DNA from: Candidatus Omnitrophota bacterium
Lineage (GTDB): Bacteria; Omnitrophota; Gorgyraeia; Gygaellales; Profunditerraquicolaceae
Assembly (NCBI GenBank): GCA_028717245.1
Contig: JAQUOD010000001.1
Location: 149,514 to 213,513, forward strand
Length of the DNA stretch: 64,000 nucleotides
Reading direction: 5' to 3'
A program made the position numbers and the translations under genes. This document shows positions 8,128-59,098 of this stretch, in pieces. The notes below the pieces were generated by a model that did no database searches, was not told the origin of the DNA, and worked only from the letters and a program-made list of their open reading frames with translations. Every line of letters begins with the position of its first letter. Position 1 is the stretch's first letter.

Positions 8128-9615
8128 CTATTTTGCTTTCAATATTTTTTTAGCGATGGTGACTGCGATTTTAACAAAATGGATAAGATACTCTTCGGGT
8201 TGCGGTCCAATGATATTAAACTTAACGATTATTTTTGTCCTAAATTTAAACCAAAATCCCGTCCATTGTAAACCCGGTACCCGTTTGGCCATATTGGTGC
8301 TTTTTACTACATTAACGCTTTTCATCAACCATTTTGCATATTTGGCATCTATGAATGGTAAGCATGTTTTTTCGTCCCAGTCAAATCTTGCCCAGCTTTC
8401 AAGTGTCTGGGGGGCTTTAAATCCCATTTCAATACACTTATAATATAAAGGCGTACCTGGATATGGTGTATATACAGACGGCCCCAAAAAATTAGCCCTG
8501 GGGTATTGTTCGTATAATTTTAACATAACCTTATAGGTCTGGAGCAAATCTTCTTTAGTCTCTTCAGGAAAACCGGCCATAAAGTGATAGCTAACACCCA
8601 AGCCGTATTTTCTTAATTTTTCATTTACCCTGAAGACTTCATCCAATTTAATATCTTTGTGTATTAAGTCTAAAATTCTGGGTGATCCGCTTTCAATGCC
8701 AAAAGTTAAAACATTACAACCGCTTTTTTTTAATAAAGCTATGAAGGAATCTTCATATTTGGCAAAATAATCTATTCTGCAATCGGCATGCCAGGCAATC
8801 CTGATGCCTCTTCTGATGATCTCAGTACAAATGTCAACAACCCTTTTTCTATCTACGAATAAATTGTCCCCGACAAAATTAATGCCGTCTAAGGAGAATT
8901 TTTTGGCGAGATATTCAATCTGCTCAACTATGCTGAAAGCTGCAAGGCCTCTCCATTTGCATTGATTGACGTTAATATTATAGCAAAATCCACACCTGTG
9001 GGGACAACCTCTATCTGTATGCAAGTCAAAGATGCGTTTACAATTCGGGTGAGAACTGCGTTTAGCTCTAATATATGTCTCGCAATCCAATAAATGATAC
9101 GGTAGCGAAGAAACACTATTTAGGTCGATGAACCGATCCTTCGGATTAGAATAGATTTTGCCGTTTTCTTTCCACCAGACATTCGGGATATCTGAAAGAG
9201 TGCTACCGCGCCTTAAAGCGGTGACTATCTTTAAAAAAGATTCCTCTCCCTCGCCTCTGACTACAATATCAACCAGGTCATCCCTGACTGTTTCTTCCGG
9301 AAGTATGCTTGCATGCAGGCCTCCCCAGACTATCGGTATGCCAGATCTACCCTTGATAATTTTGGCAAATCTTAGCCCTCCTAAAATTTGATTACCCGTC
9401 ATTGATGAGATACCTACGCAAACAGTAGAATCATTAAGTTCCCTGTCTAGATCATCAAGCCAGTGAAGATTGGTTTCTTCGTCTATAATCTTAACCTTGT
9501 AATTATTTTTCAGCAAAATCTGGCAGATAAATAATAATCCCAAGGGGAGCCTCGGGCTTAATGACCTGGCTTCTCCTTTAGAAATCTTGGGCCGGAATAA
9601 AATTATATCTGCCAT
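8128..9615 (-). CDS. B12-binding domain radical SAM protein (class B radical SAM family), paralog 1 of 6
   Basis: An N-terminal cobalamin-binding-like Rossmann domain is followed by a radical SAM CxxxCxxC motif (GCPHRCGFC). The length is 495 aa. Confidence 0.8.
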   Translation of the reverse strand: MADIILFRPKISKGEARSLSPRLPLGLLFICQILLKNNYKVKIIDEETNLHWLDDLDRELNDSTVCVGISSMTGNQILGGLRFAKIIKGRSGIPIVWGGLHASILPEETVRDDLVDIVVRGEGEESFLKIVTALRRGSTLSDIPNVWWKENGKIYSNPKDRFIDLNSVSSLPYHLLDCETYIRAKRSSHPNCKRIFDLHTDRGCPHRCGFCYNINVNQCKWRGLAAFSIVEQIEYLAKKFSLDGINFVGDNLFVDRKRVVDICTEIIRRGIRIAWHADCRIDYFAKYEDSFIALLKKSGCNVLTFGIESGSPRILDLIHKDIKLDEVFRVNEKLRKYGLGVSYHFMAGFPEETKEDLLQTYKVMLKLYEQYPRANFLGPSVYTPYPGTPLYYKCIEMGFKAPQTLESWARFDWDEKTCLPFIDAKYAKWLMKSVNVVKSTNMAKRVPGLQWTGFWFKFRTKIIVKFNIIGPQPEEYLIHFVKIAVTIAKKILKAK

Positions 9616-9672
9616 TTTAATGATACTTTATAGCTAACCTATAATTATATAGGATGAGAGGTTTATCTTAGT

Positions 9673-10869
9673 TTAAGCGAATAGGCTATCGTATAAATTT
9701 TGCGTATCCCTTATTAATCTCTCTCTGGCAAATTTAGTTTTTACGAAATCCCTGGCGCGTATACCTATATCTCGCCTTAAGGCATGATCCTGCGATATAA
9801 ACGTTAGGGCGGCAGCAAAAGTAATGGGATCTGGCAGCTTAACCAGTATGCCCCTTTCCAAAACCCCAAAATTATCCTTAGAATTATCTGCAAGGTGGGC
9901 ATTATCTCCCAGTAAGTCTTTGACTCCGCCAGCATCTGTTGCCACAACCGTCTTCCCCGAAGCCATAGCCTCAATTAAAGATACGGGTGTTCCTTCATTT
10001 AAAGAAGTCAAAACAACAATATCAAGGCCGTTATAAACATTTACTAAATCTCTCTGCCAGCCCAAAAAGGCTACCCGGCTATTAACATTAAGCCTGCACG
10101 CGTAAGCTTCTAAATCTTTTTTTAATTCTCCGTCTCCGATAATCTTGAATTTTAGCTGCGTCATAGGATTACTGGCGATAACCAGGGCTATTGTCTCTAA
10201 AAATAACCGGTGATTCTTAATCGGCACAAGCCTGCCTACAATACCAATATTCGAAACAATATTATCCCTGATGGGTATCTCTAAAAATTTGTCTAATTCA
10301 AGACCTAAGGGAATAACTTCAATTTTATCTTTTCTGCAGATGTGCAGGGCAAGCAGTTCGTTTTTAACGGAATCGCTTACAGTTATAATCCTAGAGCTGA
10401 ATACGGCCAAGAACCGTTCGATAAAAATAAATACCCTGGTTTGAACTTTATTGAAATACCCTTCAAAGATATGCCCGTGAAAGGTATGGATAAATTTAAT
10501 TTGTTTCTTTTTTAAAAGATGAAGTAAATTATAGGATATCCCGGCTAATCTGCCGAGGGTACCGGCTTTAGCCGTATGCGTATGAATTATATCGGGCTGT
10601 TCGATTTTTATAATATTGTATATTTTCTTAAATGCCTGCAGATCGCAGAAAAAACTCAATTCCCTTTTTAATTCGGGGATAAAAATAAGCTTTATATGTT
10701 TCTGGGACGCGTAATAAGACATATCACCCTCATTTTTACTTACGCTGCCGTAAACGAGTAAAGAATCAAATTTCGTTTTATCCAAACCCTCTGTCAGAAT
10801 AACCGTATTGATAGCGGGGCCGCCGATATTAAGCCTGGCAATAATTCTCAATATTTTTATTCTTTTCAT
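9673..10869 (-). CDS. Glycosyltransferase, GT-B fold, family 4-like
   Basis: The C-terminal motif EGTPVSLIEAMASGKTVVATDAGG is typical of GT4/GT1 enzymes. The length is 398 aa. Confidence 0.8.
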   Translation of the reverse strand: MKRIKILRIIARLNIGGPAINTVILTEGLDKTKFDSLLVYGSVSKNEGDMSYYASQKHIKLIFIPELKRELSFFCDLQAFKKIYNIIKIEQPDIIHTHTAKAGTLGRLAGISYNLLHLLKKKQIKFIHTFHGHIFEGYFNKVQTRVFIFIERFLAVFSSRIITVSDSVKNELLALHICRKDKIEVIPLGLELDKFLEIPIRDNIVSNIGIVGRLVPIKNHRLFLETIALVIASNPMTQLKFKIIGDGELKKDLEAYACRLNVNSRVAFLGWQRDLVNVYNGLDIVVLTSLNEGTPVSLIEAMASGKTVVATDAGGVKDLLGDNAHLADNSKDNFGVLERGILVKLPDPITFAAALTFISQDHALRRDIGIRARDFVKTKFARERLIRDTQNLYDSLFA

Positions 10870-13707: not shown

Positions 13708-15084
13708 TTAATCCAAGTCGTTAAAACCCCGCCAACTCGCCTTAAGAAAATAAAGCGTATCTTTAAAAAGCTTCATTTTCGACTTGCCGGCAATCCTGGC
13801 TTTATAATGAATAGGCATTTCGATGATTTTCATTTTCAACTTAGAAGCTCCGAATAGTAGATCAAAATCGCCCCACTTGCACCGGCCCATTTTAATATAC
13901 GGTATATAGCTTCTAAGAAGCGACTTTGTCCCGCAGAGTACGTCGGTATTTCTCTGCCCAATCATAATACTTAAAATAATACCGAATATTTTGTTTCCAA
14001 TAAATCTCAAAAAACTCATCGCGCCTTCTTCAATTGGATACACCATGCGGGTACCGTTTATAAACTCGGCCCTGCCTCTTGTGATTGGTTCAATAAATCT
14101 GTGTAGCTCGACCGGAGATACGGACATATCCGCATCTAATATAATTATCACATCCCCGCCACATTCTTTAAATCCTCTTTCTAAGGCAATCCCTTTTCCT
14201 TGATTAGGCTTATAGGATAATAGTTTTATCGTGTGGCCCGACGACCTTTTTAGCTGCTCCACTACTTTGGCTGTGCCATCGGTTGAACCATCATCGACAA
14301 CAATAATTTCGGTATTCGGCACTAACCGAGGAATCGACTCTATACACTCTTTAATATTTTCGACTTCATTAAAACAAGGCACCACAATAGAACAGGAAAG
14401 ATCTTTATACGCAATTTTCGGCTTTGCAACAATAAATTGTAAACTACACAAATTATTAATCCCGGGGACGCGGCTGAATATTTTATTCGCAAGATAAGAA
14501 AAAAAAGGGATATAAAAAGGCAATAACAACCTATAACCCGCTTCAATTATATCATAATCCAAAAGATTAAGCATATTTATGACATCGCGGTTAGTAACGA
14601 AATTCCTGATTTTATCGCTTTCTTTTAACCGCAGAATCTCTAAGAGCTTTATTATCGGTTGCCAAAGCGGATTTACCGTCGTAATGATTATTTTTGAATC
14701 TGGCTTAAGATAAAGCTTAAGGGTAGAAAATAAGTCAATTATATCATCGGAATAATCTAATAAGTTAGACAGAACTATATAGTCAAATTTATCGCAGCCC
14801 CTTAGTCCGGAAATGTCTGCCACTTGAAACATTAACTCGGCATGCTTTTCTTTAGCTAAACAGATCATCTCTTCGCTTATATCAATGCCAAACCCCCTGG
14901 TTGGCATAAGGGCACTCAACAAATCTCCGGTTGCGCAGCCTATTTCTAATATACCTTTGCCTTGCGGGATGATGGATGAATAAAATCTCTGAATCGTCCT
15001 ATGATAATAGGCATACCGTTTTCTGTGCTTATCATAGGAAGGCGCTATTTTATTAAAATATTCTTTAACAATTAATTTATTCAT
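13708..15084 (-). CDS. Bifunctional N-terminal class I SAM methyltransferase and C-terminal GT2 polyprenyl-phosphate glycosyltransferase (DPM1/ArnC-like)
   Basis: The N-terminal half has ILEIGCATGDL (SAM motif I). The C-terminal half has IVVPCFNEVENI...VVDDGSTDGT...ILDADMS, the GT-A DXD pattern typical of Dpm1/ArnC. Confidence 0.75.
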   Translation of the reverse strand: MNKLIVKEYFNKIAPSYDKHRKRYAYYHRTIQRFYSSIIPQGKGILEIGCATGDLLSALMPTRGFGIDISEEMICLAKEKHAELMFQVADISGLRGCDKFDYIVLSNLLDYSDDIIDLFSTLKLYLKPDSKIIITTVNPLWQPIIKLLEILRLKESDKIRNFVTNRDVINMLNLLDYDIIEAGYRLLLPFYIPFFSYLANKIFSRVPGINNLCSLQFIVAKPKIAYKDLSCSIVVPCFNEVENIKECIESIPRLVPNTEIIVVDDGSTDGTAKVVEQLKRSSGHTIKLLSYKPNQGKGIALERGFKECGGDVIIILDADMSVSPVELHRFIEPITRGRAEFINGTRMVYPIEEGAMSFLRFIGNKIFGIILSIMIGQRNTDVLCGTKSLLRSYIPYIKMGRCKWGDFDLLFGASKLKMKIIEMPIHYKARIAGKSKMKLFKDTLYFLKASWRGFNDLD

Positions 15085-15725
15085 GCCTCATTCCTAAATT
15101 TACCTACAAAGTATAATGCGTTATCTAACCCGAAGATTTTAGGGTACAAAATCGAACGTTCTAACGCTAATTTCTTTTTCGCATTCGTCAATATCTCCTT
15201 GTGCCCCGAAGGGTGTATCTCTTTATCATCATAACCCAATATCGCAAATAATGCTTTGCTTAGTTTATTTCGAATCGGAAAACCAATGATAGCACTACTG
15301 CCTTTTTTGAGAACGCGGCTAATTTCATTAACTGCCAGCTCTAAATCCTTTATATGTTCCAAAACGCTCTGGCAGACTACAAGATTAAAGGCCTTATCTT
15401 TAAATGGCATATTACGTATATCCCCAAAAAATAATTGAATATTTTTTACCCCGCACTCTTTCATTACCAGCCCAACTTTATCCACGTCATTATGTATATC
15501 AATACCGTACAGCATAGAACATCTGCCTGCCAAAGTAGGCAAAAGAGCCCCCGGGCCAAATCCAATTTCCAGGATATTATCGTATTTATTGTCTAAAAGG
15601 CCTCTTACCATTTCAAACCTATGCCTGTAAAATAGGCCGATTAAAGGATGATACAGATACTCAGTAAAATCGTTTAATTCCTTAGTCCTAAACTGTATCC
15701 TTTTTATTGCCGCGGGTAAATTCAT
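15081..15725 (-). CDS. Class I SAM-dependent methyltransferase
   Basis: The motif ILEIGFGPGAL is a SAM-binding glycine-rich motif I. The length is 214 aa. Confidence 0.7.
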   Translation of the reverse strand: MNLPAAIKRIQFRTKELNDFTEYLYHPLIGLFYRHRFEMVRGLLDNKYDNILEIGFGPGALLPTLAGRCSMLYGIDIHNDVDKVGLVMKECGVKNIQLFFGDIRNMPFKDKAFNLVVCQSVLEHIKDLELAVNEISRVLKKGSSAIIGFPIRNKLSKALFAILGYDDKEIHPSGHKEILTNAKKKLALERSILYPKIFGLDNALYFVGKFRNEA

Positions 15726-15773
15726 TTTATGGCATTACAGAGCATCTTTTTTTTAGTTTTAGTTATAGATATT

Positions 15774-16463
15774 TTATATCTTCTCTAACACCACGGTAGC
15801 CTTAAAGGCGCTTATATATTTCAAGAAAGCAAATTTATCTTCAATGCTTAAAAACAAATTAAGCAGTATACGGGGAATCATGCTGGGATAATTAAAACCG
15901 CCTGATAACGGATACACTAAAAAATCATGGATTTCTTGTCTTAAGATAGAAAACTCATTCGCGAATAAATCATTTTGTTTACGATTTTTAAAAAATATTC
16001 CTGTTACCATTCCATTTTGTTGTATATTTTCAAAATGAAATAGCCTTAAAACCAAATAGGAAATAATAGAAATATACATATCGATAATAATTACTCTGCC
16101 CCCCTGTTTTAGAATCCTCGATGCCTCTTTAAAAAAAACAGTCAAATCCTTTAAGTGGTGAAAAACGTCAATACACACAAGGTTAACAAAGGAATGGTCT
16201 CTGAATGGAAAAATAAGATTCGCATCAAACACTAAATCAACCCCCCTTACACCTATGATATCACTCGTAACGCAAGATGGAAAAAAGCGCTTAAAATCTC
16301 CGAATCCGCTTCCGATTTCCAGCGTTTTTCCTCCGGCATTAAGATTTTTCGCGATTTGCTTATACCACCTGTAATACACAAGCTGCAATACCTTTTTTTT
16401 CTCAAAAATTAACCTGCGTTGCCCGATATCTTTTTCGTCTATCTTAATAATCATTGAAAGCAA
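15774..16463 (-). CDS. Class I SAM-dependent methyltransferase
   Basis: The motif TLEIGSGFGDF is motif I. The length is 229 aa. Confidence 0.65.
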   Translation of the reverse strand: MLSMIIKIDEKDIGQRRLIFEKKKVLQLVYYRWYKQIAKNLNAGGKTLEIGSGFGDFKRFFPSCVTSDIIGVRGVDLVFDANLIFPFRDHSFVNLVCIDVFHHLKDLTVFFKEASRILKQGGRVIIIDMYISIISYLVLRLFHFENIQQNGMVTGIFFKNRKQNDLFANEFSILRQEIHDFLVYPLSGGFNYPSMIPRILLNLFLSIEDKFAFLKYISAFKATVVLEKI

Positions 16464-26248: not shown

Positions 26249-26268
26249 CGCGGTCTCCTGATAAAACG

Positions 26269-27701: not shown

Positions 27702-27702
27702 T

Positions 27703-38524: not shown

Positions 38525-38531
38525 CTGTGCT

Positions 38532-39392: not shown

Positions 39393-39468
39393 TTTTGCTG
39401 CTGGGATAATAATTTCATCCTGGCGAAACCACTATGAATGTATCTTCATTATATTACCTATCCATATA

Positions 39469-40608: not shown

Positions 40609-40647
40609 AGTAACCTTATCTGTTTACTATATTAACTTATTGCATCT

Positions 40648-41211: not shown

Positions 41212-41234
41212 ATTATTAGCTATTATCTTACAGA

Positions 41235-42215: not shown

Positions 42216-42227
42216 TTTAAGAATTAT

Positions 42228-44499: not shown

Positions 44500-44508
44500 C
44501 TACAAGCT

Positions 44509-44516
44509 CCCCCCCC
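44509..44516. repeat. Homopolymeric C8/G8 tract. It lies on the minus strand in the Shine-Dalgarno position of the CDS at 43456-44499.
   Basis: The minus-strand read is ...AATGGGGGGGGAGCTTGTAG-ATG. G8 is unusual in sequence of about 35% GC. Confidence 0.85.
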
Positions 44517-44531
44517 ATTAGAAACATTATT

Positions 44532-45077: not shown

Positions 45078-45081
45078 CTGC

Positions 45082-46531: not shown

Positions 46532-46545
46532 TTGCCTAAAATTTC

Positions 46546-47625: not shown

Positions 47626-47633
47626 CTCCTCTA

Positions 47634-49022: not shown

Positions 49023-50206
49023 AACCCTTGCCTCTCTTTATTTTTAACAGGGATATCGTAAAACTCTTTCTTGATGATATTTTTCAGGCCGTAATTCTTA
49101 AGGATCTTCTTAATCCTAGGTGCTGTTTTTCCGTCGCCATAGGGATTAGCAACTCCCCTAAGCATACTTTGGAATTTTCTGCTGTATAACTTCCTTATGG
49201 CATTAGTTATCTCTTTTTTTATGGGCCGACAATCTATGATACTTTTGGCCTTAATTCTGCCTTTCTGCCTATCCCCTATATTTATGGTCCCGATTTTAAA
49301 ACTGGGGGCCTCTATGATACCGCTTGAGGAATTACCCACTATGGCATCGACAAATTGCATTGTGGATAGATACAGGCGTTGCCCCATTGAGGTAAATGCA
49401 ACAGCCTTAGAGGAATTCTTTGCTACATATTCATCAATCAGCTTATTAATTATTCTTCCATCCATATCAGCATTTGCCTTAGTAAAGATAAGGGCTGTCT
49501 CCCTCAATTCATCCAAAGATTGAAGCAAACTACGAAATTGTGCTCCTGAAGTATTATTTTCCAGAGTAACCGGATGATAAGTAATTAATAAATTATGTTT
49601 ATTAAATTTAAAATGCAGTTCTTGTTCTATCGCCTTTTTTGACAAAAGCCTCAGTTTTTTTAGATTATCTAATCCCAGTGCCCCTACCTTAAAGACCCTC
49701 ACAGGGTATTCGCCCAATTGGATAACCCTTCTTCTATATTCTTCGGCAGAAGTAAAATGTAAATGGCTCATTTTGGTTATCGCATGCCTGAATGCCTCAT
49801 CAATGACGCCGAATGTCGCTTCTCCGCCATGAATATGGGCAATAGGGATTCTCAATACCAGAGCTGCAACCGCAGCAGAAAAGGCCTCAAACCTATCCCC
49901 AACAATAACGATTATATCCGGCCCTAAGGCCTTAAATGCCTTAGAAAAACTGATCAGCCCTGCCCCCACGGCCCTGCTCAATCCGAATGGGGTATCAGAA
50001 TTAAGCGAAATACCTACTTTTTTATCTATCTTAAAACCGTCCTTTTCGATTTCTTTATAGGTTGATCCGAACTCTGGCAATAAATGCATGCCGGAAACAA
50101 CAAGCTGCAGCTTTAAGGCAGGATCGTTCTTTATAACAATTAGTAAAGGCCTTAAAATACCGTATTCTGCCCTTGTTCCGGTAAAAACGCAGATTTTTCT
50201 TTTCAT
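49019..50206 (-). CDS. UDP/GDP-N-acetylhexosamine 2-epimerase (hydrolysing), NeuC/LegG-like
   Basis: The N-terminal motif ICVFTGTRAEYGILRPL and the overall 395-aa length match NeuC-family enzymes. Confidence 0.85.
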   Translation of the reverse strand: MKRKICVFTGTRAEYGILRPLLIVIKNDPALKLQLVVSGMHLLPEFGSTYKEIEKDGFKIDKKVGISLNSDTPFGLSRAVGAGLISFSKAFKALGPDIIVIVGDRFEAFSAAVAALVLRIPIAHIHGGEATFGVIDEAFRHAITKMSHLHFTSAEEYRRRVIQLGEYPVRVFKVGALGLDNLKKLRLLSKKAIEQELHFKFNKHNLLITYHPVTLENNTSGAQFRSLLQSLDELRETALIFTKANADMDGRIINKLIDEYVAKNSSKAVAFTSMGQRLYLSTMQFVDAIVGNSSSGIIEAPSFKIGTINIGDRQKGRIKAKSIIDCRPIKKEITNAIRKLYSRKFQSMLRGVANPYGDGKTAPRIKKILKNYGLKNIIKKEFYDIPVKNKERQGL

Positions 50207-51207
50207 AATTCTATTAATGAATCCTTTTTAAAAAAAAATTTTGCCATCCTGCCGATTACATCATCCCATTTCATCGGATTTAAACCAGAGGCAGGCCTTT
50301 TAGTTGTAATATTAGCTGCAGTAAAATATTCTCCCTTACTGATATTTCTTGCTGCGACTATGCTTTTACGGGCTATTATTTTATTCTTGCGTTCTGAGCA
50401 AGATGCTTTTTTGATTCCGTTACCAAGGGCCTTTTCTATATTTCTTATCCCATTTATCATTGCCTTAAGTTCTTTCGGTTCCAAAGATGCCTTATGGTCA
50501 GGACCTTTCATATTTCTATCCAGGGTAAAATGTTTCTCTATCACAAATGCGCCCAGGGCTACTGCGGCTATAGGAACCTCAATACCGATAGTATGGTCGG
50601 AATAGCCTACCCTAACCTTAAAAGCCTCTTTTATCGTGAGCATAGCGCGTAGATTGGCATCTTCAAAGGGAGTCGGATATTCGGTATTACAATGGAGTAA
50701 TGTTATTTTTTCTTTTGCCGTCCCCGCCTCAGTAAGCACATCCAGCGCGTTTTTTATCTCGCGTAGGTCCGACATACCGGTTGAAAGTATAATTTTTTTC
50801 TTCAATCTCCCGATCTTTCTCAAATATGGAAGATTGGTAATTTCCCCCGAGGGGATCTTAAACATATTAATACCGAGCTTATCCAATAGTTCAATGCTTT
50901 CTAAATCAAAAGGTGATGATAAAAATATAATCTTTTTTCTTTTACAGTAATGCATAAGCTCTTTATGGGCATCGAACGTTAATTCTAATTTCTTTATCAT
51001 TTCAAATTGAGATTCTTCCTTATCAGTGGTTTTCTTTTGGTATTCAGCCTTAGGGGCAAGCTTGGTCAGTAATCTATCGGCTTTAAATGTCTGGAATTTT
51101 ACCGCATCGGCCCCTGCTTCTACAGCTATATCAATCATTCTTTTAGCTGTTTTAATGCTCCCGTTATGGTTTACGCCTGCCTCTGCAATAATAAAAGTTT
51201 TACCCAT
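50203..51207 (-). CDS. NeuB-family nonulosonic acid synthase (LegI/NeuB-like) with a C-terminal SAF domain
   Basis: The N-terminus is FIIAEAGVNHNGSIKTAKRMIDIAVEAGADAVKFQTF. The length is 334 aa. Confidence 0.9.
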   Translation of the reverse strand: MGKTFIIAEAGVNHNGSIKTAKRMIDIAVEAGADAVKFQTFKADRLLTKLAPKAEYQKKTTDKEESQFEMIKKLELTFDAHKELMHYCKRKKIIFLSSPFDLESIELLDKLGINMFKIPSGEITNLPYLRKIGRLKKKIILSTGMSDLREIKNALDVLTEAGTAKEKITLLHCNTEYPTPFEDANLRAMLTIKEAFKVRVGYSDHTIGIEVPIAAVALGAFVIEKHFTLDRNMKGPDHKASLEPKELKAMINGIRNIEKALGNGIKKASCSERKNKIIARKSIVAARNISKGEYFTAANITTKRPASGLNPMKWDDVIGRMAKFFFKKDSLIEL

Positions 51208-51215
51208 AATAAGTC

Positions 51216-51875
51216 TTATCTATTAGCATTATATTCAAACTTATGGCCATACAATTCTATGTACGCCCCGGGCATACCAGGATAGGCAGTCGCCTTTACG
51301 CGTTTTTTTATCTCTTCCTGCGGCATAGCCGCTTCTATTCGGCATAATTCCTCTAATTCTGAGCGAGTATAGGGCTTCCTCTTCCATGTTTCGTTAGAAA
51401 AAGGAATGATATTTTTAGTGAGAATAGAGTCCATAATTTCATAAAATAAAGTGTACATACATTCGTAACTTTTTATACTTAGGGTATATACGGAATCATT
51501 TCTTAACATTGAGAATCTTTTAACCGCGATTATTTTACCGCTATCGACATTCTTTTCCATTAAATGGGCGGTAATGCCGTAATACTTTTCTTGATTGTAT
51601 ATGGCAAAATTAAAACAGCCTATACCCGGATACTCTGGCGGGCCAGGATGAAAGTTTATACTCCATAATGCTGTTTTATTTAAAATTTGCTCCGGAATTA
51701 GCCACGGAGACAAATAAGAGATTAATATATCCTGAGAGCCGTTGAGCGCCTCTAGAGGAATAGATTCTCCTCTTTCCCCTTCATAGATAGCTACAGTATC
51801 AAAGTTTTTCTTTAAGTATTCTTTCACTTCATTAACTGTGGGTTTATCCGGTTTAGTAAACAGAGCGATTTTCAT
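51216..51875 (-). CDS. Formyltransferase-family protein (putative sugar N-formyltransferase)
   Basis: The motifs SINFHPGPPEYPG and GITAHLMEKNVDSGKI match the formyl_trans_N core blocks. The length is 219 aa. Confidence 0.55.
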   Translation of the reverse strand: MKIALFTKPDKPTVNEVKEYLKKNFDTVAIYEGERGESIPLEALNGSQDILISYLSPWLIPEQILNKTALWSINFHPGPPEYPGIGCFNFAIYNQEKYYGITAHLMEKNVDSGKIIAVKRFSMLRNDSVYTLSIKSYECMYTLFYEIMDSILTKNIIPFSNETWKRKPYTRSELEELCRIEAAMPQEEIKKRVKATAYPGMPGAYIELYGHKFEYNANR

Positions 51876-51882
51876 ATTAATA

Positions 51883-52974
51883 TTAAAGCGATTCTTTTAT
51901 AATCTTACATATATAGCGTATATCGTTTTCAGAATTTAGCGTCGAACTCGGCAAGCATAAGCCTTTTTCGTAAATATAGCGAGAATTATCGTAACGTCCT
52001 TGTCTATATTTTTTATATGGAGGGAACTCTGTCACGGGCATAAAGATCCTACGCGTGGGAATTCCCTTTACACTTAATTTTCTCCTTAATATTACTATGT
52101 CAACTTTATCACCGAAAGTAATGCAGGTGAGCCAAGAAGAGCTATCTGCCCCCTCGTACTCGTCTTGAAAACGGATATTTCTGATTCCCTTCATTTCATT
52201 TCGGTAAATAGCCTTAAATCTCTTTTTCTTGGCAAGGAACCCATTCAATCTCTTTAATTGCGCCAGGCCTAAAACCGCTTCTATATTAGTCATTCTGTAA
52301 TTGAAGCCGACTTCAGGATAGAAATACCCCCTTGACTCATCCCGAGCTTGGTTTACTAAAAACTTTATGTGTCCTAATCTCTTTTTGCTATTCCCCACTA
52401 CCATACCGCCGCCACCCGTAGTTATTATTTTATTTCCGTTAAAGCTAAAACAACCCAAATCTCCATATGTCCCTGTATATTTTCCTTTATATTTTGCCCC
52501 GAGGCTCTCGGTAGCATCTTCTATCACATAAATATTGTATTTGCGTGCGATTTTCATTATTTCATCCATATTACAGGGATTACCGTAAAAATGGACAGGT
52601 ATTATTGCTCTGGTCTTTTTGGTTATTTTTTTTTCAATCTTTTCAGGAGATATGTTCCAGGTTCTTATATCCACATCTACAAAAACCGGCTTTGCCCCTA
52701 CATATATAACAGGGTTTACTGTAGCGATGAAGGTCAGATTCGGAACAATTACTTCGTCTCCTTTACCTATCCTAAGCTCATATAAGGCGATATGCAGGGC
52801 AGCTGTACCGCTCTGCGTTGAAACGGCTTTTTTTGTCTCCAAATATTTAGCAAATTTTTCTTCAAATTCTGAAACATAAGGCCCGTATGTGGAAATGAAT
52901 CCTTTATCAATAGTTGTATTAATATAATTTTTCTCCAAGCGGCCAATATTAGGGGCGTCTAGTTCAATAAACAC
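51883..52974 (-). CDS. DegT/DnrJ/EryC1/StrS-family PLP sugar aminotransferase (LegC/PseC-like)
   Basis: The sequence has the FSFNGNKIITTGGGGM lysine region. The length is 363 aa. Confidence 0.9.
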   Translation of the reverse strand: MFIELDAPNIGRLEKNYINTTIDKGFISTYGPYVSEFEEKFAKYLETKKAVSTQSGTAALHIALYELRIGKGDEVIVPNLTFIATVNPVIYVGAKPVFVDVDIRTWNISPEKIEKKITKKTRAIIPVHFYGNPCNMDEIMKIARKYNIYVIEDATESLGAKYKGKYTGTYGDLGCFSFNGNKIITTGGGGMVVGNSKKRLGHIKFLVNQARDESRGYFYPEVGFNYRMTNIEAVLGLAQLKRLNGFLAKKKRFKAIYRNEMKGIRNIRFQDEYEGADSSSWLTCITFGDKVDIVILRRKLSVKGIPTRRIFMPVTEFPPYKKYRQGRYDNSRYIYEKGLCLPSSTLNSENDIRYICKIIKESL

Positions 52975-53966
52975 TCTTTCTCTCCTAAGTCTGGCGAAGT
53001 ATTGTAGTACTTTTTATCCTCGGGGTTATTAATTAGGCCTGACTTCAATAAATTAAGAACTTCCTTTACTCCGTCTACAACTGTGAATTCCTTTCTAATG
53101 TTTAATAACCTTCGAAGCTTTGAAAAATCTACCTTATAATCCCTTAAATCATACCCACTTTTAACTAATTCTATTTTAGTTTCCGGCATAAATGTTTTAA
53201 CAATTTGGGCGATCTGTATCTTCTGATAATTCTCTTCATTGAAACCCAGGTTAAAAACATTATTCTTGACCCTTTCAAAATCTTTAACCATTTGGATAAT
53301 TATCTTGGCGGCATCAACCACATGAATATAGGGCCTTTGACTGTAAGGAAGAAAAATATCCAAATATTTCTTGGTGTGGGCATTCATCGTGAAATCATTT
53401 ACGGTCAAATCAAACCTCATTCTTGGCGAATAACCATATACGGTAGAAAGCCGGCAGATAACCCAATCTAAATTTTTAACCTTATCCAATAAATGCCTCT
53501 CCACTCCTACCTTTGTTTCTGCATATAAAGAAAGGGGCTTTAAGGGCGATTCCTCGTTTGCCATGCCTTGCGAGACTCCGTAGTTAGAACAGGTTGATAA
53601 AAATATGATGCCGGTAGCTTCTGATTTCTGAATTTTTTCTATTAACCGTATAGACATATCATAATTAATAAGGCGAGTTAATACGGGAAATTTTTTGCTC
53701 GCAGGGTCCCCCACTACTGCAGCTGCGTGGATAATAATATCTATGTCCTTTAAGAATCCATCCAGCAATTCCTCCCTGCATAAATCCTCTCTTATAAATT
53801 CATAATTAGGATTATGGGAATACTCTAAAGGAACTTCCTTATCAAACCAAAGATGGTCAACTACCCTTACTTTAAAATTATTACGCAGGGATAAATCTGC
53901 AATTACTGAGCCGATATATCCGGCTCCGCCAGTTATTAAGATCCTTTTTTTTAGATTTGTCCCCAT
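52959..53966 (-). CDS. NAD-dependent nucleotide-sugar 4,6-dehydratase/epimerase (LegB-like candidate)
   Basis: The sequence has ILITGGAGYIGSVI and the YAETK YxxxK motif. The length is 335 aa. Confidence 0.75.
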   Translation of the reverse strand: MGTNLKKRILITGGAGYIGSVIADLSLRNNFKVRVVDHLWFDKEVPLEYSHNPNYEFIREDLCREELLDGFLKDIDIIIHAAAVVGDPASKKFPVLTRLINYDMSIRLIEKIQKSEATGIIFLSTCSNYGVSQGMANEESPLKPLSLYAETKVGVERHLLDKVKNLDWVICRLSTVYGYSPRMRFDLTVNDFTMNAHTKKYLDIFLPYSQRPYIHVVDAAKIIIQMVKDFERVKNNVFNLGFNEENYQKIQIAQIVKTFMPETKIELVKSGYDLRDYKVDFSKLRRLLNIRKEFTVVDGVKEVLNLLKSGLINNPEDKKYYNTSPDLGEKECLLN

Positions 53967-53978: not shown

Positions 53979-55856
53979 TTAATTAACCTGATGCGCCGTT
54001 TGACTTGATAATGTTAATTCGTACAGATTATTTCTCAATCTTTCCAGGGCCTTATCATCATCAAAGGCATCGTATTCTCTTATTTCTTTCTCACTGATGA
54101 CATCTCGGCAAGTAAATCTTCCGTTTAAAATATCATTCAATTGCTTAAACAGAAGGTCTTTATCCTCAAATACAAATATGTTTTCATATTTCTTGGCGAA
54201 GGGATGGCATTTATTGCCTGTATTATCAAAATAAAGGGCGTTTTTACCGCATATCAATGCTACTGTTGACGGGCTGTTTAATCCCATACTTACACATACA
54301 TCCGAAACAGCCAAAGCTTCCTCAAAACCAAATTCTAAAGGGTTCAAATAGAAAAAGTTAGTGCAACTTGTCAAGCCATCATATATTTTTCTATATTCAG
54401 CAGCTCTCTCCCCCAGATATCTTAAGACTATTTGTTTATCAACTTTTGGTTTTAACAAAACATTGATACCCTTATTATTTCTACAGAACTCTTTTATTAT
54501 TTCCAGATATCTAAGAAAAAAACTGCTGGTAAGATGCAAGCTATCGTCAAAAGAATTATCAAAAAATGTCACTATTTTCCCCCCATTCTTGATATTAAGT
54601 TTTTGAGAAATAATTTTTTCTTTATTACCAATCGCCTGATTAAATTCCTGCTTAAATATGCATCCAATATTAATCTTGGTATCTATAAAAGTATACGCCG
54701 AGTGAAAATCATAATGTATGTCGCTCCAGGTAAAATAAATATTATGCGCGCAGAAGGCATAGCTGTATCCTTTAAAAGCGGTTAAATCGCTCCAGTTGAA
54801 AATAGTATTTTTTGCGCCATATTTGTTTAGAATAATTGTTGTTACATTATCATCGTAGTTTATTGATGAAATATTGTATTTTATCCTGTATGAATTCATT
54901 AATACTTCAATGGGAAAACACCTTTTATGGAATAAAAATATATAATAGAATAGGTATGATTTTTTGTTTAAGAGCAATCGTAAGTAAGTTGCTAAAGGTA
55001 GTAAAAAATAGAAGGACAAAATATCAAAAATATTTTTGTTGATATTAATCCTTAATTCCGGCACAGAAACAGTATCAAAACCTCTTTTATTTGCTTCTTT
55101 AAAAAAATTATCAACTCGGTCTTGGTATCGGTTATTAAATTCCAATATTAACAAATCGCTTTTCTTAAATTTAATATTATCTACCACGATATCATCCCTT
55201 AGTGTCTTTTGGTAGAACCCTGATGCAGCTTCTTTGGATATTTTATAGTCCTTTATACTTTTGTTAAAAACCACCCCCCTTCTAATGAATTCTATAAATA
55301 ACCATCCGTAATATAAGCATAGAAAAAACGGTTCCCACAAAAGAAATACATGCTTTATCTTATATTTAACTCCGTATTTTGCTTCCATGTATCCAAGCAT
55401 AAAATCATTAATAGGGTTTTTACTGATCAGTATAGCTCTCTCTTTTAAACCAGATAACCTCACTGAATGCAAACTCTTTAATAAGATAAACACATGGTTT
55501 GAAATTTCCCTCTTTATATATGCTTCAAATTTGTCTGTATTAAGAATTCTATTGTAATAGCTAATGACTTTATTATCATTTCCAATTATTTTATTGTAAA
55601 AATTATTAGTTAAATCCACTGTTTCCGCGTGAATTTCATATATTAAACCCTCATAATCTTCTAAACATGTTTTATATTCTTTAACTGATTTTTTAACATA
55701 TCCCCTGACAAAAGGAATAAGGTTTATGCACGGGGGTATTTGAGAACCGATTATTGTCAAGCAATGATTCCTGATCCAGCACCATAAAATAATATTCAAA
55801 TTTTCAAACTCGTTTCTTCCGAATAAAGCGATATAATTTTTTCTAATGCTTAGCAT
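53979..55856 (-). CDS. Orphan 625-aa protein with a TagB/TagF-like GT-B C-terminal motif. It is a paralog-like relative of 23705-25516 and 55860-57695.
   Basis: The C-terminal segment is SDVCVSMGLNSPSTVALICGKNALYF (D-x-h-h-[ST]-x-x-x-S-[ST]...GK-x-h). Confidence 0.4.
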   Translation of the reverse strand: MLSIRKNYIALFGRNEFENLNIILWCWIRNHCLTIIGSQIPPCINLIPFVRGYVKKSVKEYKTCLEDYEGLIYEIHAETVDLTNNFYNKIIGNDNKVISYYNRILNTDKFEAYIKREISNHVFILLKSLHSVRLSGLKERAILISKNPINDFMLGYMEAKYGVKYKIKHVFLLWEPFFLCLYYGWLFIEFIRRGVVFNKSIKDYKISKEAASGFYQKTLRDDIVVDNIKFKKSDLLILEFNNRYQDRVDNFFKEANKRGFDTVSVPELRININKNIFDILSFYFLLPLATYLRLLLNKKSYLFYYIFLFHKRCFPIEVLMNSYRIKYNISSINYDDNVTTIILNKYGAKNTIFNWSDLTAFKGYSYAFCAHNIYFTWSDIHYDFHSAYTFIDTKINIGCIFKQEFNQAIGNKEKIISQKLNIKNGGKIVTFFDNSFDDSLHLTSSFFLRYLEIIKEFCRNNKGINVLLKPKVDKQIVLRYLGERAAEYRKIYDGLTSCTNFFYLNPLEFGFEEALAVSDVCVSMGLNSPSTVALICGKNALYFDNTGNKCHPFAKKYENIFVFEDKDLLFKQLNDILNGRFTCRDVISEKEIREYDAFDDDKALERLRNNLYELTLSSQTAHQVN

Positions 55857-55859
55857 AAA

Positions 55860-57695
55860 TTACTTCCCATTATGCTGAAAAACGCAGCATTCTAACTTAG
55901 AATACAAAGAACTATCTGACAATTTAATATCTACTTGATATTGTTTACCATCGGACTCCAGAAAATCTTTAATAAGCGGCTTAATATCATTAAATTCTTG
56001 GAATGTAGTGAGGCTTTTACCAAAGAATTCTCTGGCGCCTTTCCTAATGGAAAGGCCTTCCCTAACAAAAGCTAATACCGGAATCTTATTTACTGCTGCC
56101 TGGTAAAAGGAAGAGCTTGGATTGTCGGTTAAAAACATATCGCAATTTTTCAAATTTGTTAATAAGGAATCCATCCTAGCAGAAACATTTGTAAACTTTC
56201 TGGTTGTAATATATTTATAAATTGGGCTTATATTCCCGCTATTTAATGTCGGCAGGCCTTTCCAGATAAAATCATAATCGGTTAACGTAGACAGAAAATC
56301 TATCAATTGTAATTGAAATCTGTAATACCATGTGGATGTATATTCAGCCCCGTCCAGCCTGTTTATTGTTTCCTGAAAAAAGCCCGGCGCATAAAGTATT
56401 CTTTTCTTCCTTTTATTAATAGATTTACGCCTTATCCGCGATAACTTTAACCAATCAACATTAATCATAATTTTGGTCTGATACCCCCTACGCTTAGTTA
56501 CCATTTCAAAATATTCTTTCCCTTCATCGTCATTGGCGAAAAAAATATCTGCAAAACGAAGCTCTGTTATATCCCACATTAAATTTGCGAAAACATTACC
56601 TCCATGGCAGCCGGAGACATTTGTAATACTAGCACTGTTTTTCCCCAGATGCACCAGGGCCTCGTTTACCGTTAAGTTATTCAGGTAAGGATAAATAATA
56701 TACTTAAGATTAACTTTTTCTGTAAAAGACAAAAGGGTATCATAAAATGCGGTTAACTTAGGAATATAACTCTCAAAAAGATAATCTATGCGCGGTTTAA
56801 TCAGGTTTTTAAAATCGATACCGCAGAGTTCTTTCCAGGTGTCAAAAATAAAGTCTGAAATCATACTTTTCTCACGTGGCGGATTAAAAGTCTTATTTAT
56901 CAAAAAATCTATTTCTATCTTTGCGCTTGGTGAATACCTATAAATCTTTTCATCTTCCTTTTTTATAAAAACATTCCAACCGTTTTTATAGAAATCCTTA
57001 ATCCACAGCCTTACCCCATAATCAGTCCCTATAAAAAGAACTGATTTGTTGGCATGGATTTTTGACCTGCCATTTAGCTTGCATTTAATTCCGGTCAATA
57101 AACTATCTATTGCAAAGCGTAACTGCCGCACAATAACCTTAGTTTTTCCAGAACAAGGCACTCTTTTCCTCAATCCGGGAGAAGGCAATAGATGATTAAT
57201 AATTTTTATATCCTTATTTTTACAAATAACCGGCAATACATGATAAAATACTGAATTATCTACCATATAAATCCTATCATCAATATATTCTTTAAAATTA
57301 TAGCCATAATATACTATTGACTTACAAGAAAATTTATCGAGTATTTTCTCTATAAGTTTTGTATAAATATAAATGGGGTCAAGCAGCAACCTTAAATTAT
57401 AGAAAAGAAGATCGCCTATTTCTAAATTTCTAGCTTTAACCTCGGCTATTTCTTTAAAAACCCTATTTAATTCTTGAGAAATTAACAACTCTGTATTAAA
57501 TAATTTCTCCGACATCCGATAGAAAACGGTTAATTCTGATTCAGACAGGCAATCTTCAAGAATTAGGTAGGATATATTTCTCCTACCTAATTCAAAACAT
57601 ACATCAGGATTTAAAGCTACTATTTTTAAGCCGCCCGCCATGAGGTCCCTATCAAACCTCTCAGCAAAAATAAGCGTAGTAGTATTATTTACCAT
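55860..57695 (-). CDS. Orphan 611-aa protein with a TagB/TagF-like GT-B C-terminal motif
   Basis: The C-terminal segment CDMFLTDNPSSSFYQAAVNKIPVLAF closely matches the DxLITDYSS...KP[IV] signature of CDP-glycerol glycerophosphotransferases. Confidence 0.45.
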   Translation of the reverse strand: MVNNTTTLIFAERFDRDLMAGGLKIVALNPDVCFELGRRNISYLILEDCLSESELTVFYRMSEKLFNTELLISQELNRVFKEIAEVKARNLEIGDLLFYNLRLLLDPIYIYTKLIEKILDKFSCKSIVYYGYNFKEYIDDRIYMVDNSVFYHVLPVICKNKDIKIINHLLPSPGLRKRVPCSGKTKVIVRQLRFAIDSLLTGIKCKLNGRSKIHANKSVLFIGTDYGVRLWIKDFYKNGWNVFIKKEDEKIYRYSPSAKIEIDFLINKTFNPPREKSMISDFIFDTWKELCGIDFKNLIKPRIDYLFESYIPKLTAFYDTLLSFTEKVNLKYIIYPYLNNLTVNEALVHLGKNSASITNVSGCHGGNVFANLMWDITELRFADIFFANDDEGKEYFEMVTKRRGYQTKIMINVDWLKLSRIRRKSINKRKKRILYAPGFFQETINRLDGAEYTSTWYYRFQLQLIDFLSTLTDYDFIWKGLPTLNSGNISPIYKYITTRKFTNVSARMDSLLTNLKNCDMFLTDNPSSSFYQAAVNKIPVLAFVREGLSIRKGAREFFGKSLTTFQEFNDIKPLIKDFLESDGKQYQVDIKLSDSSLYSKLECCVFQHNGK

Positions 57696-57715
57696 CGTCT
57701 TTAAAAGTTTAAATT

Positions 57716-59098
57716 TTAATGGCGTGTTCCTCTAAAGGAATAATCATTTTCATAATAGACTCTTCGGAAATCTTCTATACATTTATCTTCCATGTAGTCG
57801 TAATAGGACGTTATTATTTTTTTATTAGCCTCAAACATTAAATCGGTAAATTCATCGTCCGGGATTTCGGTGAAATTCACTGTTAATAGCTCTAAATTTT
57901 TATGTTTGCGATAAAAATCTTCCGGCCCCTTCAGCAGCCCTTTTTTAATGGCTAAATCGTAAAGAGGAGACCCCGGATACGGCGTTACCGGCCTGATTGT
58001 CCTGAGCTGTCCATAATCATTATATTTATGAAGAAAATCCAATGACCTCTTTAGCGTTTTTTGATTATCGCCAATATTCCCGAATATTATATTGAATAAA
58101 GGCCGGATTCCTCTCTCAAGAGTAAGCCTTATTCCATTCTCTATATCAATGGTAGTTAGTTCTTTATTCATCTTTCTTAAGGCATCGTCGTCGAATTGCT
58201 CAATACCATAATCAATAGCAACGCACCCGCTACGCTTCATTATGTCTAATACTTTAGCATTGGCTTTATTTAGCCTGCCTGTACAGAAATAATTAATATT
58301 AAGATTATTTTTTAAAAATTTTCCACAGATATCAAAGATTCTTTTTTCATTTAGCATAAAGAGTTCATCAAAGAACCATACGTAATTTATATTATAATCC
58401 CGTTTATATTTTTTAACCTCTTCAACTATATTATCCGAGGAACGAAGCCTTATGTCTTTTTCCAACCGATAGCAAAAATTACAATGATAGACACATCCTC
58501 TCTGCGCACTAACGCTTATACCCCGATCCAACGGCGAAGTAAAATACGTCGATTTAATGTAGAATTCCATAGGCAGCGAATCCAAATAAGGCGAAGGAAT
58601 TGAATCTAGATCCATAATAGGCTTTTCCCTGGGATTAACGATAACCCTATCGCCGTCACGAAAGGCAATCCCATTAACGTTTGATAAATTTTCGTTATTA
58701 TCAAGCGCCTTAATAATATTTAAAAACGGTATTTCTCCTTCTCCCATAACAACAGCATCTGCTCCGCAATATCTTATAAAATATTCCGGGACAGGAGAAG
58801 GCCCGTGTCCCCCTAAAACTATAAATGGTTTCTTTTTTAAACTCGTTATTGCATCGCAGATCTTCTTTATCTTTATGTGTTGAAAATACCCCGCAACGAA
58901 ACCCATAGCAACAACATCAAAGTGATTTCTCTTCAAGTATTCATGAAGATGGTCCTCATTATAATGGTAGACATCCTGGCAATAATAGGTTGTCTCTCTG
59001 TATCCGTGTTCCCTTAAATAAGCTGCAACATAGGTAATCCCGATGGGTAAGATATTATCCCTGCTTTCGTTATCATATAAAACGAATAAAATTTTCAT
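57716..59098 (-). CDS. B12-binding domain radical SAM protein, paralog 6 of 6
   Basis: The radical SAM motif is GCVYHCNFCYR. The length is 460 aa. Confidence 0.8.
   Translation of the reverse strand: MKILFVLYDNESRDNILPIGITYVAAYLREHGYRETTYYCQDVYHYNEDHLHEYLKRNHFDVVAMGFVAGYFQHIKIKKICDAITSLKKKPFIVLGGHGPSPVPEYFIRYCGADAVVMGEGEIPFLNIIKALDNNENLSNVNGIAFRDGDRVIVNPREKPIMDLDSIPSPYLDSLPMEFYIKSTYFTSPLDRGISVSAQRGCVYHCNFCYRLEKDIRLRSSDNIVEEVKKYKRDYNINYVWFFDELFMLNEKRIFDICGKFLKNNLNINYFCTGRLNKANAKVLDIMKRSGCVAIDYGIEQFDDDALRKMNKELTTIDIENGIRLTLERGIRPLFNIIFGNIGDNQKTLKRSLDFLHKYNDYGQLRTIRPVTPYPGSPLYDLAIKKGLLKGPEDFYRKHKNLELLTVNFTEIPDDEFTDLMFEANKKIITSYYDYMEDKCIEDFRRVYYENDYSFRGTRH

Follow-up and report, generated by a model that had tools for sequence, protein, structure and literature searches.

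Six class B-type radical SAM genes in a surface-glycan locus

The window analysed here, a stretch of 64,000 nucleotides from contig JAQUOD010000001.1 of a Candidatus Omnitrophica bacterium (positions 149,514–213,513), contains six genes for radical S-adenosylmethionine (SAM) proteins (rSAMs) of the B12-binding type, which we number rSAM1 to rSAM6 by coordinate. It comprises most of a >60 kb cell-surface glycan locus of the Wzy/ABC type. All 56 open reading frames (ORFs) of at least 150 amino acids (aa) lie on the minus strand and are tightly packed. Pfam and NCBIfam annotation, both precomputed and fresh, identifies two NeuB-based nonulosonic acid (NulO) modules, a heptose module, many glycosyltransferases, a Wzy_C protein and an initiating transferase. 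The same annotation finds neither flagellin nor Maf genes within the window; instead, the window encodes Wzy, an initiating transferase and an ABC exporter. A flagellin glycosylation island was therefore rejected in favour of a Wzy/ABC-type surface-glycan locus.

Read in the direction of transcription (64 kb to 1 kb), the map starts with NulO module A, followed by rSAM6, two proteins of ∼600 aa and module B with rSAM5. The heptose module C with rSAM4 and its CmcI partner is next, and then a GDSL protein, a GT2 glycosyltransferase, an ABC exporter and module D, which is headed by rSAM3. The final part is an assembly block that consists of a 603 aa protein, an epimerase, a GT2 glycosyltransferase, rSAM2, a GT1+DUF218 protein, a PMT_2 protein, several methyltransferases, an acetyltransferase, a GT4 glycosyltransferase, rSAM1, the initiating transferase and Wzy_C.

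The first-pass annotation of this DNA had proposed six genes that combine a cobalamin-binding-like domain with a CxxxCxxC motif, embedded in one sugar locus. Pfam and motif analysis recover all six at exactly the coordinates given for each below, and the annotation of the surrounding genes bears out the sugar locus. The proteins rSAM1 to rSAM6 have lengths of 495, 769, 482, 566, 462 and 460 aa and contain a single CxxxCxxC motif each, at residues 204, 222, 201, 250, 202 and 202, respectively. An N-terminal PF02310 B12-binding domain is detected in each of them (48.9–82.9 bits against a gathering score of 32.1) and is followed by a PF04055 Radical_SAM domain (56.2–81.2 bits against a gathering score of 29.5). 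The motif together with an above-threshold PF04055 core places all six in the radical SAM superfamily, and PF02310 preceding this core is the class B architecture. The GG and GE(G/S/A)E motifs are likewise conserved in all six.

The pairwise identity among the six proteins is 21–31%, with the exception of rSAM5 and rSAM6 (46.5%). The earlier description of them as paralogs is consequently valid at the level of the superfamily, but not in the sense of copies of one gene. Judged from their sequences, they are separate, anciently diverged lineages, each with its own orthologues elsewhere. A recent amplification within the locus was rejected on the basis of these identities; it is also opposed by the orthologues that rSAM2, rSAM4 and rSAM5 each have elsewhere, at 50–79% identity.

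Overlaps of 4 nt are present between rSAM5 and NeuC, between rSAM6 and the upstream DegT gene and between rSAM4 and CmcI, while rSAM2 overlaps a GT2 gene by 1 nt and directly abuts the GT1+DUF218 gene. Thus, for four of the six, a sugar gene is translationally coupled or immediately adjacent. The claim that several stand at the head of sub-modules is correct for rSAM3 alone: with transcription proceeding from the high to the low coordinates, the majority of the six genes are found mid-module or at the tail.

Six B12-type rSAM genes among ∼54 cluster genes is a density that is not due to chance. In the comparator set, 50 loci that are themselves centred on a B12-type rSAM gene, the maximum is four per ∼21 kb. 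At least one further B12-type rSAM gene is found within 10 kb in 23 of the 50 loci around rSAM5 orthologues. One Thermodesulfovibrionales locus contains four B12-type rSAM genes together with an rSAM-SPASM gene, and one other contig has five and an rSAM-SPASM gene in 21 kb. Omnitrophota, Nitrospirota and Thermoplasmatales are among the groups in which glycan loci with multiple B12-type rSAM genes recur. The six genes, which the first-pass annotation had called unusual, are thus at the top of the range observed, but the arrangement is not unique, since such glycan loci recur in other anaerobes.

Gene modules around the six enzymes

rSAM5 (462 aa, 47634–49022, class B-type) lies within module B (45830–53966), which is identified by Pfam and NCBIfam as legionaminic-acid-type. 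All features of the window described here and below are on the minus strand. The module starts with a 4,6-dehydratase-like protein (52959–53966), a LegC-family aminotransferase (51883–52974), a formyltransferase (51216–51875), a NeuB/LegI-type synthase (50203–51207) and a hydrolysing 2-epimerase of the NeuC/LegG type (49019–50206). These are followed by rSAM5, a PtmE-like protein with CBS and nucleotidyltransferase domains (46546–47625) and a cytidine monophosphate (CMP)-sugar synthetase (45830–46531). In NCBIfam the synthase and the epimerase score well above their cut-offs (NeuB_NnaB, 516.6 bits against 399.65; NeuC_NnaA, 486.3 bits against 235.9), whereas the aminotransferase remains marginally under that of the LegC family (413.4 bits against 420). 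The LegC-type, NeuB/LegI, NeuC/LegG, PtmE-like and CMP-synthetase genes that together mark a legionaminic-acid cassette are all present around rSAM5; its product may be legionaminic acid, the 8-epimer or another stereoisomer. The full set of the Campylobacter jejuni legionaminic pathway (LegB, LegC, LegH, LegG, LegI, LegF and PtmE) is found in module B and in the cassettes around rSAM5 orthologues, with a formyltransferase in place of the PglD-type acetyltransferase in module B of the window. The C. jejuni pathway does not contain a radical SAM enzyme, whereas the rSAM5 cassettes add a conserved one of class B type. Since the canonical Leg enzymes are all present in these cassettes, the radical SAM enzyme would provide an added step and not a replacement.

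The gene set of module B is colinear in many phyla. Homologues of rSAM5 with 69–79% identity are found across Omnitrophota, Nitrospirota, Thermodesulfobacteriota, Bacillota and Eremiobacterota, and a scan using one genome per species retrieved relatives in at least 403 GTDB species. The best 80 of these 403 have 63–73% identity and take in Planctomycetota (including anammox lineages), bacteria of the candidate phyla radiation (CPR), Methanolobus and a metagenome-assembled genome (MAG) of Promethearchaeota. Cultured carriers of the family are Geomonas silvestris Red330 and Wukongibacter baidiensis DY30321, and it is also present in Brocadiaceae and Scalindua MAGs.

The gene context was quantified in the 50 rSAM5-orthologue loci with adequate flanks, the ORFs of which were searched with the window proteins. 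NeuB is found near the orthologue in 82% of the loci, a CMP-synthetase in 78%, an epimerase of the NeuC type in 72% and a PtmE-like transferase in 72%; all four hallmarks are present in 60%. The usual order, on one strand, is dehydratase–DegT–PglD–NeuB–epimerase–PtmE–CMP-synthetase–rSAM5. Eight of the 50 loci contain Maf or flagellin genes, and some of the cassettes are located in flagellin glycosylation islands that contain both; in a Bacillota MAG the orthologue is flanked by the epimerase and NeuB, with three flagellin genes and a Maf gene alongside. On this comparative evidence rSAM5 is a conserved accessory gene of legionaminic-acid-type cassettes.

rSAM6 (460 aa, 57716–59098; B12-binding 55.7 bits, Radical_SAM 65.9 bits) is the class B-type protein at the tail of module A (59095–63991). 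This NulO module was identified using Pfam and the PseC/LegC-type NCBIfam matches of its DegT protein (59095–60384). It further contains a GFO/IDH oxidoreductase (60372–61415), a CTP_transf_3 cytidylyltransferase (61357–62130), a 363 aa protein with a weak resemblance to Epimerase_2 and to NeuC (62127–63218) and a second NeuB (63242–63991) that runs off the window. The two NeuB proteins of the window are 38% identical. Blocks similar to module A, in which NeuB, CTP_transf_3, DegT and a 460 aa rSAM are combined, occur in two further loci (L095 and L097). Comparative genomics thus ties both rSAM5 and rSAM6 to NulO cassettes.

rSAM4 (566 aa, 36824–38524) carries a C-terminal helical or TPR-like extension and is the last gene of the heptose module; its partner is a CmcI/RMNT-type methyltransferase (36102–36827; PF04989, 237 bits). 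Module C itself (38532–45882), a heptose or deoxy-amino-sugar module according to Pfam, contains a nucleotidyltransferase (45082–45882), a SIS isomerase (44532–45164), a dehydratase (43456–44499), a Methyltransf_13/14 sugar C-methyltransferase (42228–43469), a GHMP kinase (41235–42215), a cupin sugar isomerase/epimerase (40648–41211), a DegT aminotransferase (39469–40608) and a formyltransferase-like protein (38532–39392). Orthologues of rSAM4 are 50–78% identical and form a sharply bounded family, some members of which have TPR matches in Pfam. One of them (P0259, 796 aa) is fused to a CmcI-type methyltransferase.

In the Thermoplasmatales MAG GCA_030640375.1 (L091) a heptose module that is colinear with positions 36824–45882 of the window is present, in which the GHMP kinase is 73%, the dehydratase 67%, the isomerase 63%, rSAM4 60%, the C-methyltransferase 47% and the nucleotidyltransferase 41% identical to the window proteins. 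It is followed by a related GT2. Identities of 60–73% in the same gene order between Omnitrophota and an archaeon imply a recent inter-domain transfer of the whole module. A metagenome scan for rSAM4 returned mostly distant class B relatives and ∼12 true orthologues. Of the 12 orthologue loci whose context could be used, nine have CmcI, either separate or fused, nine have a GHMP kinase and seven have the sugar C-methyltransferase. Several heptose-module loci also contain NulO genes with an enzyme resembling rSAM5 or rSAM6. The colinear archaeal module and the metagenomic loci thus connect rSAM4 to the heptose module. A GT2 glycosyltransferase of 383 aa in the window (33771–34922, Glycos_transf_2) co-occurs with rSAM4 orthologues, with relatives (29–38% identity) in six of the 12 loci, and is a candidate transferase for the modified heptose.

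Two of these loci have additional content. The archaeal locus also contains DegT, an iron-containing alcohol dehydrogenase, a cytidylyltransferase and another B12-type rSAM beside NeuB and NeuC. The locus of an rSAM4–CmcI fusion (L092, 371–5662) contains a LuxC/LuxE-type acyl-reductase and acyl-protein synthetase, an AMP-binding enzyme, a carrier protein and another B12-type rSAM, which hints that some sugar modules attach or modify acyl substituents.

rSAM3 (482 aa, 30517–31965, class B-type; B12-binding 58.7 bits, Radical_SAM 72.3 bits) is the first gene after the ABC exporter and the head of module D. An exact-sequence look-up for this protein gave no record. It is followed by a seventh radical SAM gene, which is not of the B12 type and was absent from the earlier listing: a 325 aa protein with Radical_SAM and SPASM domains (29507–30484). 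Its best solved homologues are the aminocyclitol dehydrogenase BtrN and MoaA (E of ∼7e-11), and rSAM-SPASM genes are found in 20% of the rSAM5-orthologue loci. According to Pfam and NCBIfam, module D (25532–29643) further consists of a HisC/CobD-like pyridoxal phosphate enzyme (28462–29643), a HAD-like protein (27703–28461) for which no informative match was obtained, a pyruvate aldolase of the HpcH/HpaI type (26934–27701) and two CTP_transf_3 cytidylyltransferases (26269–26937 and 25532–26248). Among solved structures, the barrel protein is closest to HpcH/HpaI and the YfaU 2-keto-3-deoxy-sugar aldolases and not to phosphoenolpyruvate (PEP) mutase. Module D possibly makes a third CMP-activated 2-keto-3-deoxy acid, by a route that uses an aldolase and differs from that of NeuB.

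rSAM2 (769 aa, 19587–21896) is fused at its C-terminus to a class I SAM methyltransferase (Methyltransf_11, residues 541–634). Its orthologues are common, mostly in Omnitrophota, and include both fusion forms (51–60% identity) and standalone forms (45–68%). The block kept together with it (17718–23708) contains an epimerase (22806–23708), a GT2 glycosyltransferase (21896–22816), rSAM2 and the GT1+DUF218 protein (17718–19586). The groundwater contig L089 is syntenic, in the order epimerase–GT2–rSAM2–GT1/DUF218–PMT_2–initiating transferase–Wzy, with identities of 40% for the epimerase, 40% for GT2, 55% for rSAM2 and 65% for GT1+DUF218; at its end are the orthologues of the initiating transferase (60%) and Wzy_C (55%). 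In locus L090 rSAM2 and GT1+DUF218 are 64% and 60% identical. As far as these comparisons go, rSAM2 is co-inherited with a glycosyltransferase block. rSAM1 (495 aa, 8128–9615, class B-type; B12-binding 48.9 bits, Radical_SAM 81.2 bits) lies between the GT4 glycosyltransferase and the initiating transferase.

Cofactor and proposed chemistry

For every NCBIfam equivalog and named family, the scores of the six proteins stay under the curated cut-off. This applies to BchE, HpnJ, HpnR, PhpK, Sden_1168, ladderane, Mmp10/MgmA, TsrM, KedN5, BzaD, ArsL and AprD4. BchE (TIGR02026) was rejected at 105–176 bits against a cut-off of 481.35, and the context is not that of tetrapyrroles. HpnJ (TIGR03471; 99–171 bits against 577.6) and HpnR (TIGR04367; 57–97 bits against 650) were rejected as well. 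The first-pass annotation had considered that profile searches might place these proteins in non-methylating clades; all scores are far under the respective cut-offs. By the same measure, no characterised methylase family can claim any of the six either.

On balance, we consider it somewhat probable that the six are distinct class B-type enzymes, each wired into its own block of biosynthetic steps, that C-methylate sugars. In this explanation rSAM5 and rSAM6 would serve the two NulO (legionaminic/pseudaminic-type) modules, and rSAM4 with its CmcI partner would serve a module for a deoxy-amino-sugar derived from guanosine diphosphate (GDP)-heptose. rSAM3 and the rSAM-SPASM protein would serve the third module, which makes a CMP-activated acid, while rSAM2 and rSAM1 lie among the glycosyltransferases. 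The [4Fe–4S] cluster would cleave SAM to generate a 5'-deoxyadenosyl radical, which would abstract a H atom from an unactivated sugar carbon. The resulting substrate radical would take a methyl group from methylcobalamin, with a second SAM molecule regenerating the methylcobalamin. The substrates are probably nucleotide-activated sugars, from which the enzymes are predicted to make nonulosonic acids and heptoses with a C-methyl branch or an extended chain. The neighbouring conventional methyltransferases may then O-methylate or N-methylate these products; in particular, the linkage of rSAM2 and rSAM4 with such enzymes suggests that C-methylation and O/N-methylation are paired on one and the same sugar.

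Fom3 of fosfomycin biosynthesis acts on the CMP-activated substrate cytidylyl-2-hydroxyethylphosphonate. Because rSAM5 is usually encoded next to, and usually follows, the CMP-sugar synthetase, this likeness favours CMP-activated or late intermediates as substrates. The Fom3 substrate differs in that it is a phosphonate and not a sugar, and the window contains neither PEP mutase nor phosphonate genes.

The likeliest reaction is the C-methylation of activated sugars, with the specific chemistry at roughly even odds. The radical tailoring of nonulosonic acids and heptoses that was proposed at first has gained strong comparative-genomic support as regards the pathway that each enzyme serves, while for C-methylation itself we infer a mechanism by analogy with Fom3, GenK/GenD1, TokK, CysS and MgmA. 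That the methylation would be iterative, as was also proposed, is drawn solely from what class B enzymes do in general; TokK and CysS do carry out iterative methylation of unactivated carbons. GenK and GenD1 of gentamicin biosynthesis resemble the six in combining a cobalamin domain with a radical SAM core, and their targets are carbons of amino-sugars that bear OH or H; both are classed as Csp3-methyltransferases (2026 review). They differ, in a comparison by description and not by sequence, in belonging to actinomycete aminoglycoside clusters with pseudo-oligosaccharide substrates and not to modules for surface glycans or nucleotide sugars.

Several observations weigh against C-methylation. 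An AlphaFold2 model of rSAM5 (pLDDT 92.3, pTM 0.90) does have the two-domain class B fold, but its best match in the PDB is the cobalamin-independent AprD4 of apramycin biosynthesis (PDB entry 6FD2; Foldseek E of 5e-25, TM score of 0.73 over the full length), which is also the top PDB match by sequence (E of 1.2e-20). TsrM, MgmA, OxsB, CysS and TokK follow slightly behind with TM scores of 0.63–0.69 and identities of 16–21%. AprD4 and ArsL sit within the B12-type rSAM similarity network without using B12, and non-methylating class B members cannot be recognised from sequence (2026 review). In addition, NulO genes are absent within 10 kb of 14–18% of the rSAM5 orthologues.

Some or all of the six, and rSAM5 especially, could in that case be cobalamin-independent enzymes with a vestigial Rossmann domain that, in the manner of AprD4, catalyse dehydration/deoxygenation, epimerisation or anaerobic oxidation of sugars. 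AprD4 itself modifies an amino-sugar, and the rSAM-SPASM protein in the same locus resembles the sugar dehydrogenase BtrN. We nevertheless regard this alternative as unlikely. The AprD4 family model (NF033070) gives only 64–99 bits against a cut-off of 500 and was rejected; in five of the six proteins its alignment is confined to the radical SAM core (starting at residues ∼150–215), with rSAM4 aligned from residue 140. Furthermore, AprD4 is a 1,2-diol dehydratase whose reaction depends on a vicinal diol and on a partner reductase, and it does not bind cobalamin. AprD4-type dehydration becomes less attractive because the rSAM5 cassettes already contain a 4,6-dehydratase, because legionaminic acid, to judge from its pathway, lacks a vicinal diol for such chemistry and because no AprD3-like partner reductase is conserved in the rSAM5-orthologue loci.

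The N-terminal domain, which proved more informative on this question than the overall fold, also weighs against this alternative. A profile of the first 150 residues of the rSAM5 family and all six window proteins was searched against the PDB. It matches the cobalamin domains of OxsB (1.1e-9), TsrM (1.9e-7), TokK (5.2e-6) and MgmA (1.5e-5), as well as two B12 mutases (∼1e-4) and PDB entry 4Q37, over a range of E from 1e-9 to 6e-4. AprD4 does not appear at E ≤ 1 in this search. The N-terminal domain is very strongly conserved in the rSAM5 family. Against a lack of cobalamin-binding residues, raised by the first-pass annotation as a possible objection, stands the homology of the N-terminal domains to cobalamin-binding domains of solved structure, which favours genuine cobalamin domains in these proteins. 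MgmA/QCMT (PDB entry 9CCB), TsrM, TokK, CysS and OxsB share the two-domain fold and have similar cobalamin domains; their substrates differ, being peptides, proteins, carbapenems, a carrier-linked small molecule and a nucleoside. Every class B group that has a characterised member contains C-methyltransferases, and methylases are scattered through all of these groups (2026 review).

The enzymes may also act off the sugar carbons, on N-acyl side chains, on a phosphonate or phosphinate head group (P-methylation) or on a lipid or protein acceptor. The best NCBIfam match of rSAM2 is indeed the P-methyltransferase family Sden_1168 (E of 2e-90), rSAM1 and rSAM2 are located among glycosyltransferases and not among nucleotide-sugar enzymes, the N-acyl groups of NulOs are known sites of diversification and an rSAM4 orthologue stands together with the acyl-activating LuxC/LuxE/AMP-binding genes of L092. 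We consider such a role improbable. The highest score of any of the six against the Sden_1168 and PhpK P-methyltransferase families (NF038361 and TIGR04479, with cut-offs of 575 and 600) is the 303.7 bits of rSAM2, and both were rejected. A Fom3/PhpK-like phosphonate or P-methylation pathway for rSAM2 and rSAM3 was equally rejected because the window does not contain a PEP mutase, its sole PEP/pyruvate barrel resembling the HpcH/HpaI pyruvate aldolases. rSAM5 and rSAM4, moreover, lie among nucleotide-sugar enzymes and are inherited together with them. That the clustering is meaningless, with unrelated or decaying rSAM genes accumulated in a large variable island, would fit the hypervariable and mosaic character of Omnitrophota surface-glycan loci but is most improbable, as all six proteins are full-length with intact motifs, four are coupled to or abut sugar genes, rSAM5, rSAM4 and rSAM2 show module-level synteny across phyla or domains and methyltransferase fusions are found for rSAM2 and for an rSAM4 orthologue.

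Returning to C-methylation, we tentatively propose a more specific version, which we hold to be possible but less probable than not. The rSAM5/rSAM6 clade would consist of cobalamin-dependent C-methyltransferases that act on CMP-activated or free legionaminic/pseudaminic (Leg/Pse)-type acids and yield 'higher-carbon' ulosonic acids. They would form part of a toolkit of distinct class B enzymes for surface sugars in anaerobes and many uncultured lineages, in which enzymes of the rSAM5/rSAM6 type alkylate nonulosonic acids, and the rSAM4–CmcI unit heptoses, at unactivated carbons. 'Higher-carbon' ulosonic acids with a C10 marker have been detected as CMP-sugars by mass spectrometry in Magnetospirillum gryphiswaldense and in smaller amounts in Methanococcus; the marker is 14.01 Da above the C9 Leg/Pse backbone, which is inconsistent with O-methylation (2026 preprint). 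In Candidatus Kuenenia a Leg-type sugar that carries a formyl group and has variants of +14 Da has been described (2026 preprint), and the cluster architecture of this organism resembles module B. A C-methylating enzyme of the rSAM5/rSAM6 type may account for such ten-carbon ulosonic acids.

Significance and further features of the locus

In the searchable literature we found nothing relevant that links B12 or radical SAM enzymes to nonulosonic, legionaminic or pseudaminic acids, to O-antigen or to Omnitrophota; the papers in it that contain both 'radical SAM' and 'legionaminic' are unrelated. The 2026 review of class B radical SAM enzymes does not mention sugars or glycans, and an Omnitrophota genome paper (2026) notes variable lipopolysaccharide and capsule loci but not these enzymes. 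The statement that such tailoring is largely undescribed for nonulosonic acids and heptoses therefore holds within this literature. What appears to be new is that primary surface-sugar pathways have recruited class B radical SAM enzymes as conserved members.

The surfaces and flagella of bacteria and archaea are capped by nonulosonic acids and heptoses, sugars that govern recognition by phages and the immune system and whose chemical diversity is only partly explained. The breadth of the rSAM5 family in legionaminic cassettes (∼65–73% identity across at least 403 species of many phyla, including archaea and CPR bacteria) implies a common, uncharacterised sugar modification, and the rSAM4–CmcI heptose unit implies a second one. 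If C-methylation is correct, class B enzymology would extend from antibiotics and cofactors to the primary synthesis of cell-surface glycans, and candidate genes would be available for the unassigned ten-carbon ulosonic acids. The toolkit proposed above would, if true, add sugar classes for which no biosynthesis has been described.

The terminus of the cluster (5026–8068) is formed by the initiating transferase (Glycos_transf_4 and CoA_binding_3, 6245–8068) and the polymerase/ligase-family protein Wzy_C (5026–6273). The housekeeping genes PGK and TIM (662–2618) mark the end of the cluster. Between these and Wzy_C a 754 aa protein (2696–4960) with a central spermine/spermidine-synthase-like domain is encoded.

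The load of conventional SAM methyltransferases is unusually high, with at least six domains (13708–16463, 19587–21896, 36102–36827 and 42228–43469). These are a methyltransferase–GT2 fusion, two small methyltransferases, the domain fused to rSAM2, CmcI and the Methyltransf_13/14 C-methyltransferase. Together with the two formyltransferase-type genes, they suggest a heavily methylated, formylated and relatively hydrophobic glycan.

Three proteins of ∼600 aa without a solid Pfam family adjoin the CMP-sugar modules (55860–57695, 53979–55856 and 23705–25516). One of them has only a precomputed PF27878 PFTS_polysacc match, and one has a partial match (76 bits, with a cut-off of 250) to TIGR04326, the Leptospira LIC13510-type surface-carbohydrate protein. 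BLAST detects no similarity of the three to each other. Unannotated proteins of 599–680 aa likewise flank cytidylyltransferases or rSAM genes in loci L008, L089 and L092. For the transfer of the modified ulosonic acids, the ∼600 aa proteins are candidates.

Some ∼4–5 kb past the high end of the window, on the opposite strand, there is an eighth radical SAM gene (L006, 4184–5569). It encodes a 461 aa B12-type rSAM that is 29.5% identical to rSAM3, of which it is the closest relative in the contig, and an asparagine-synthase-like gene, a methyltransferase and a GT1 are present upstream. The locus and its complement of radical SAM genes therefore reach past the window.

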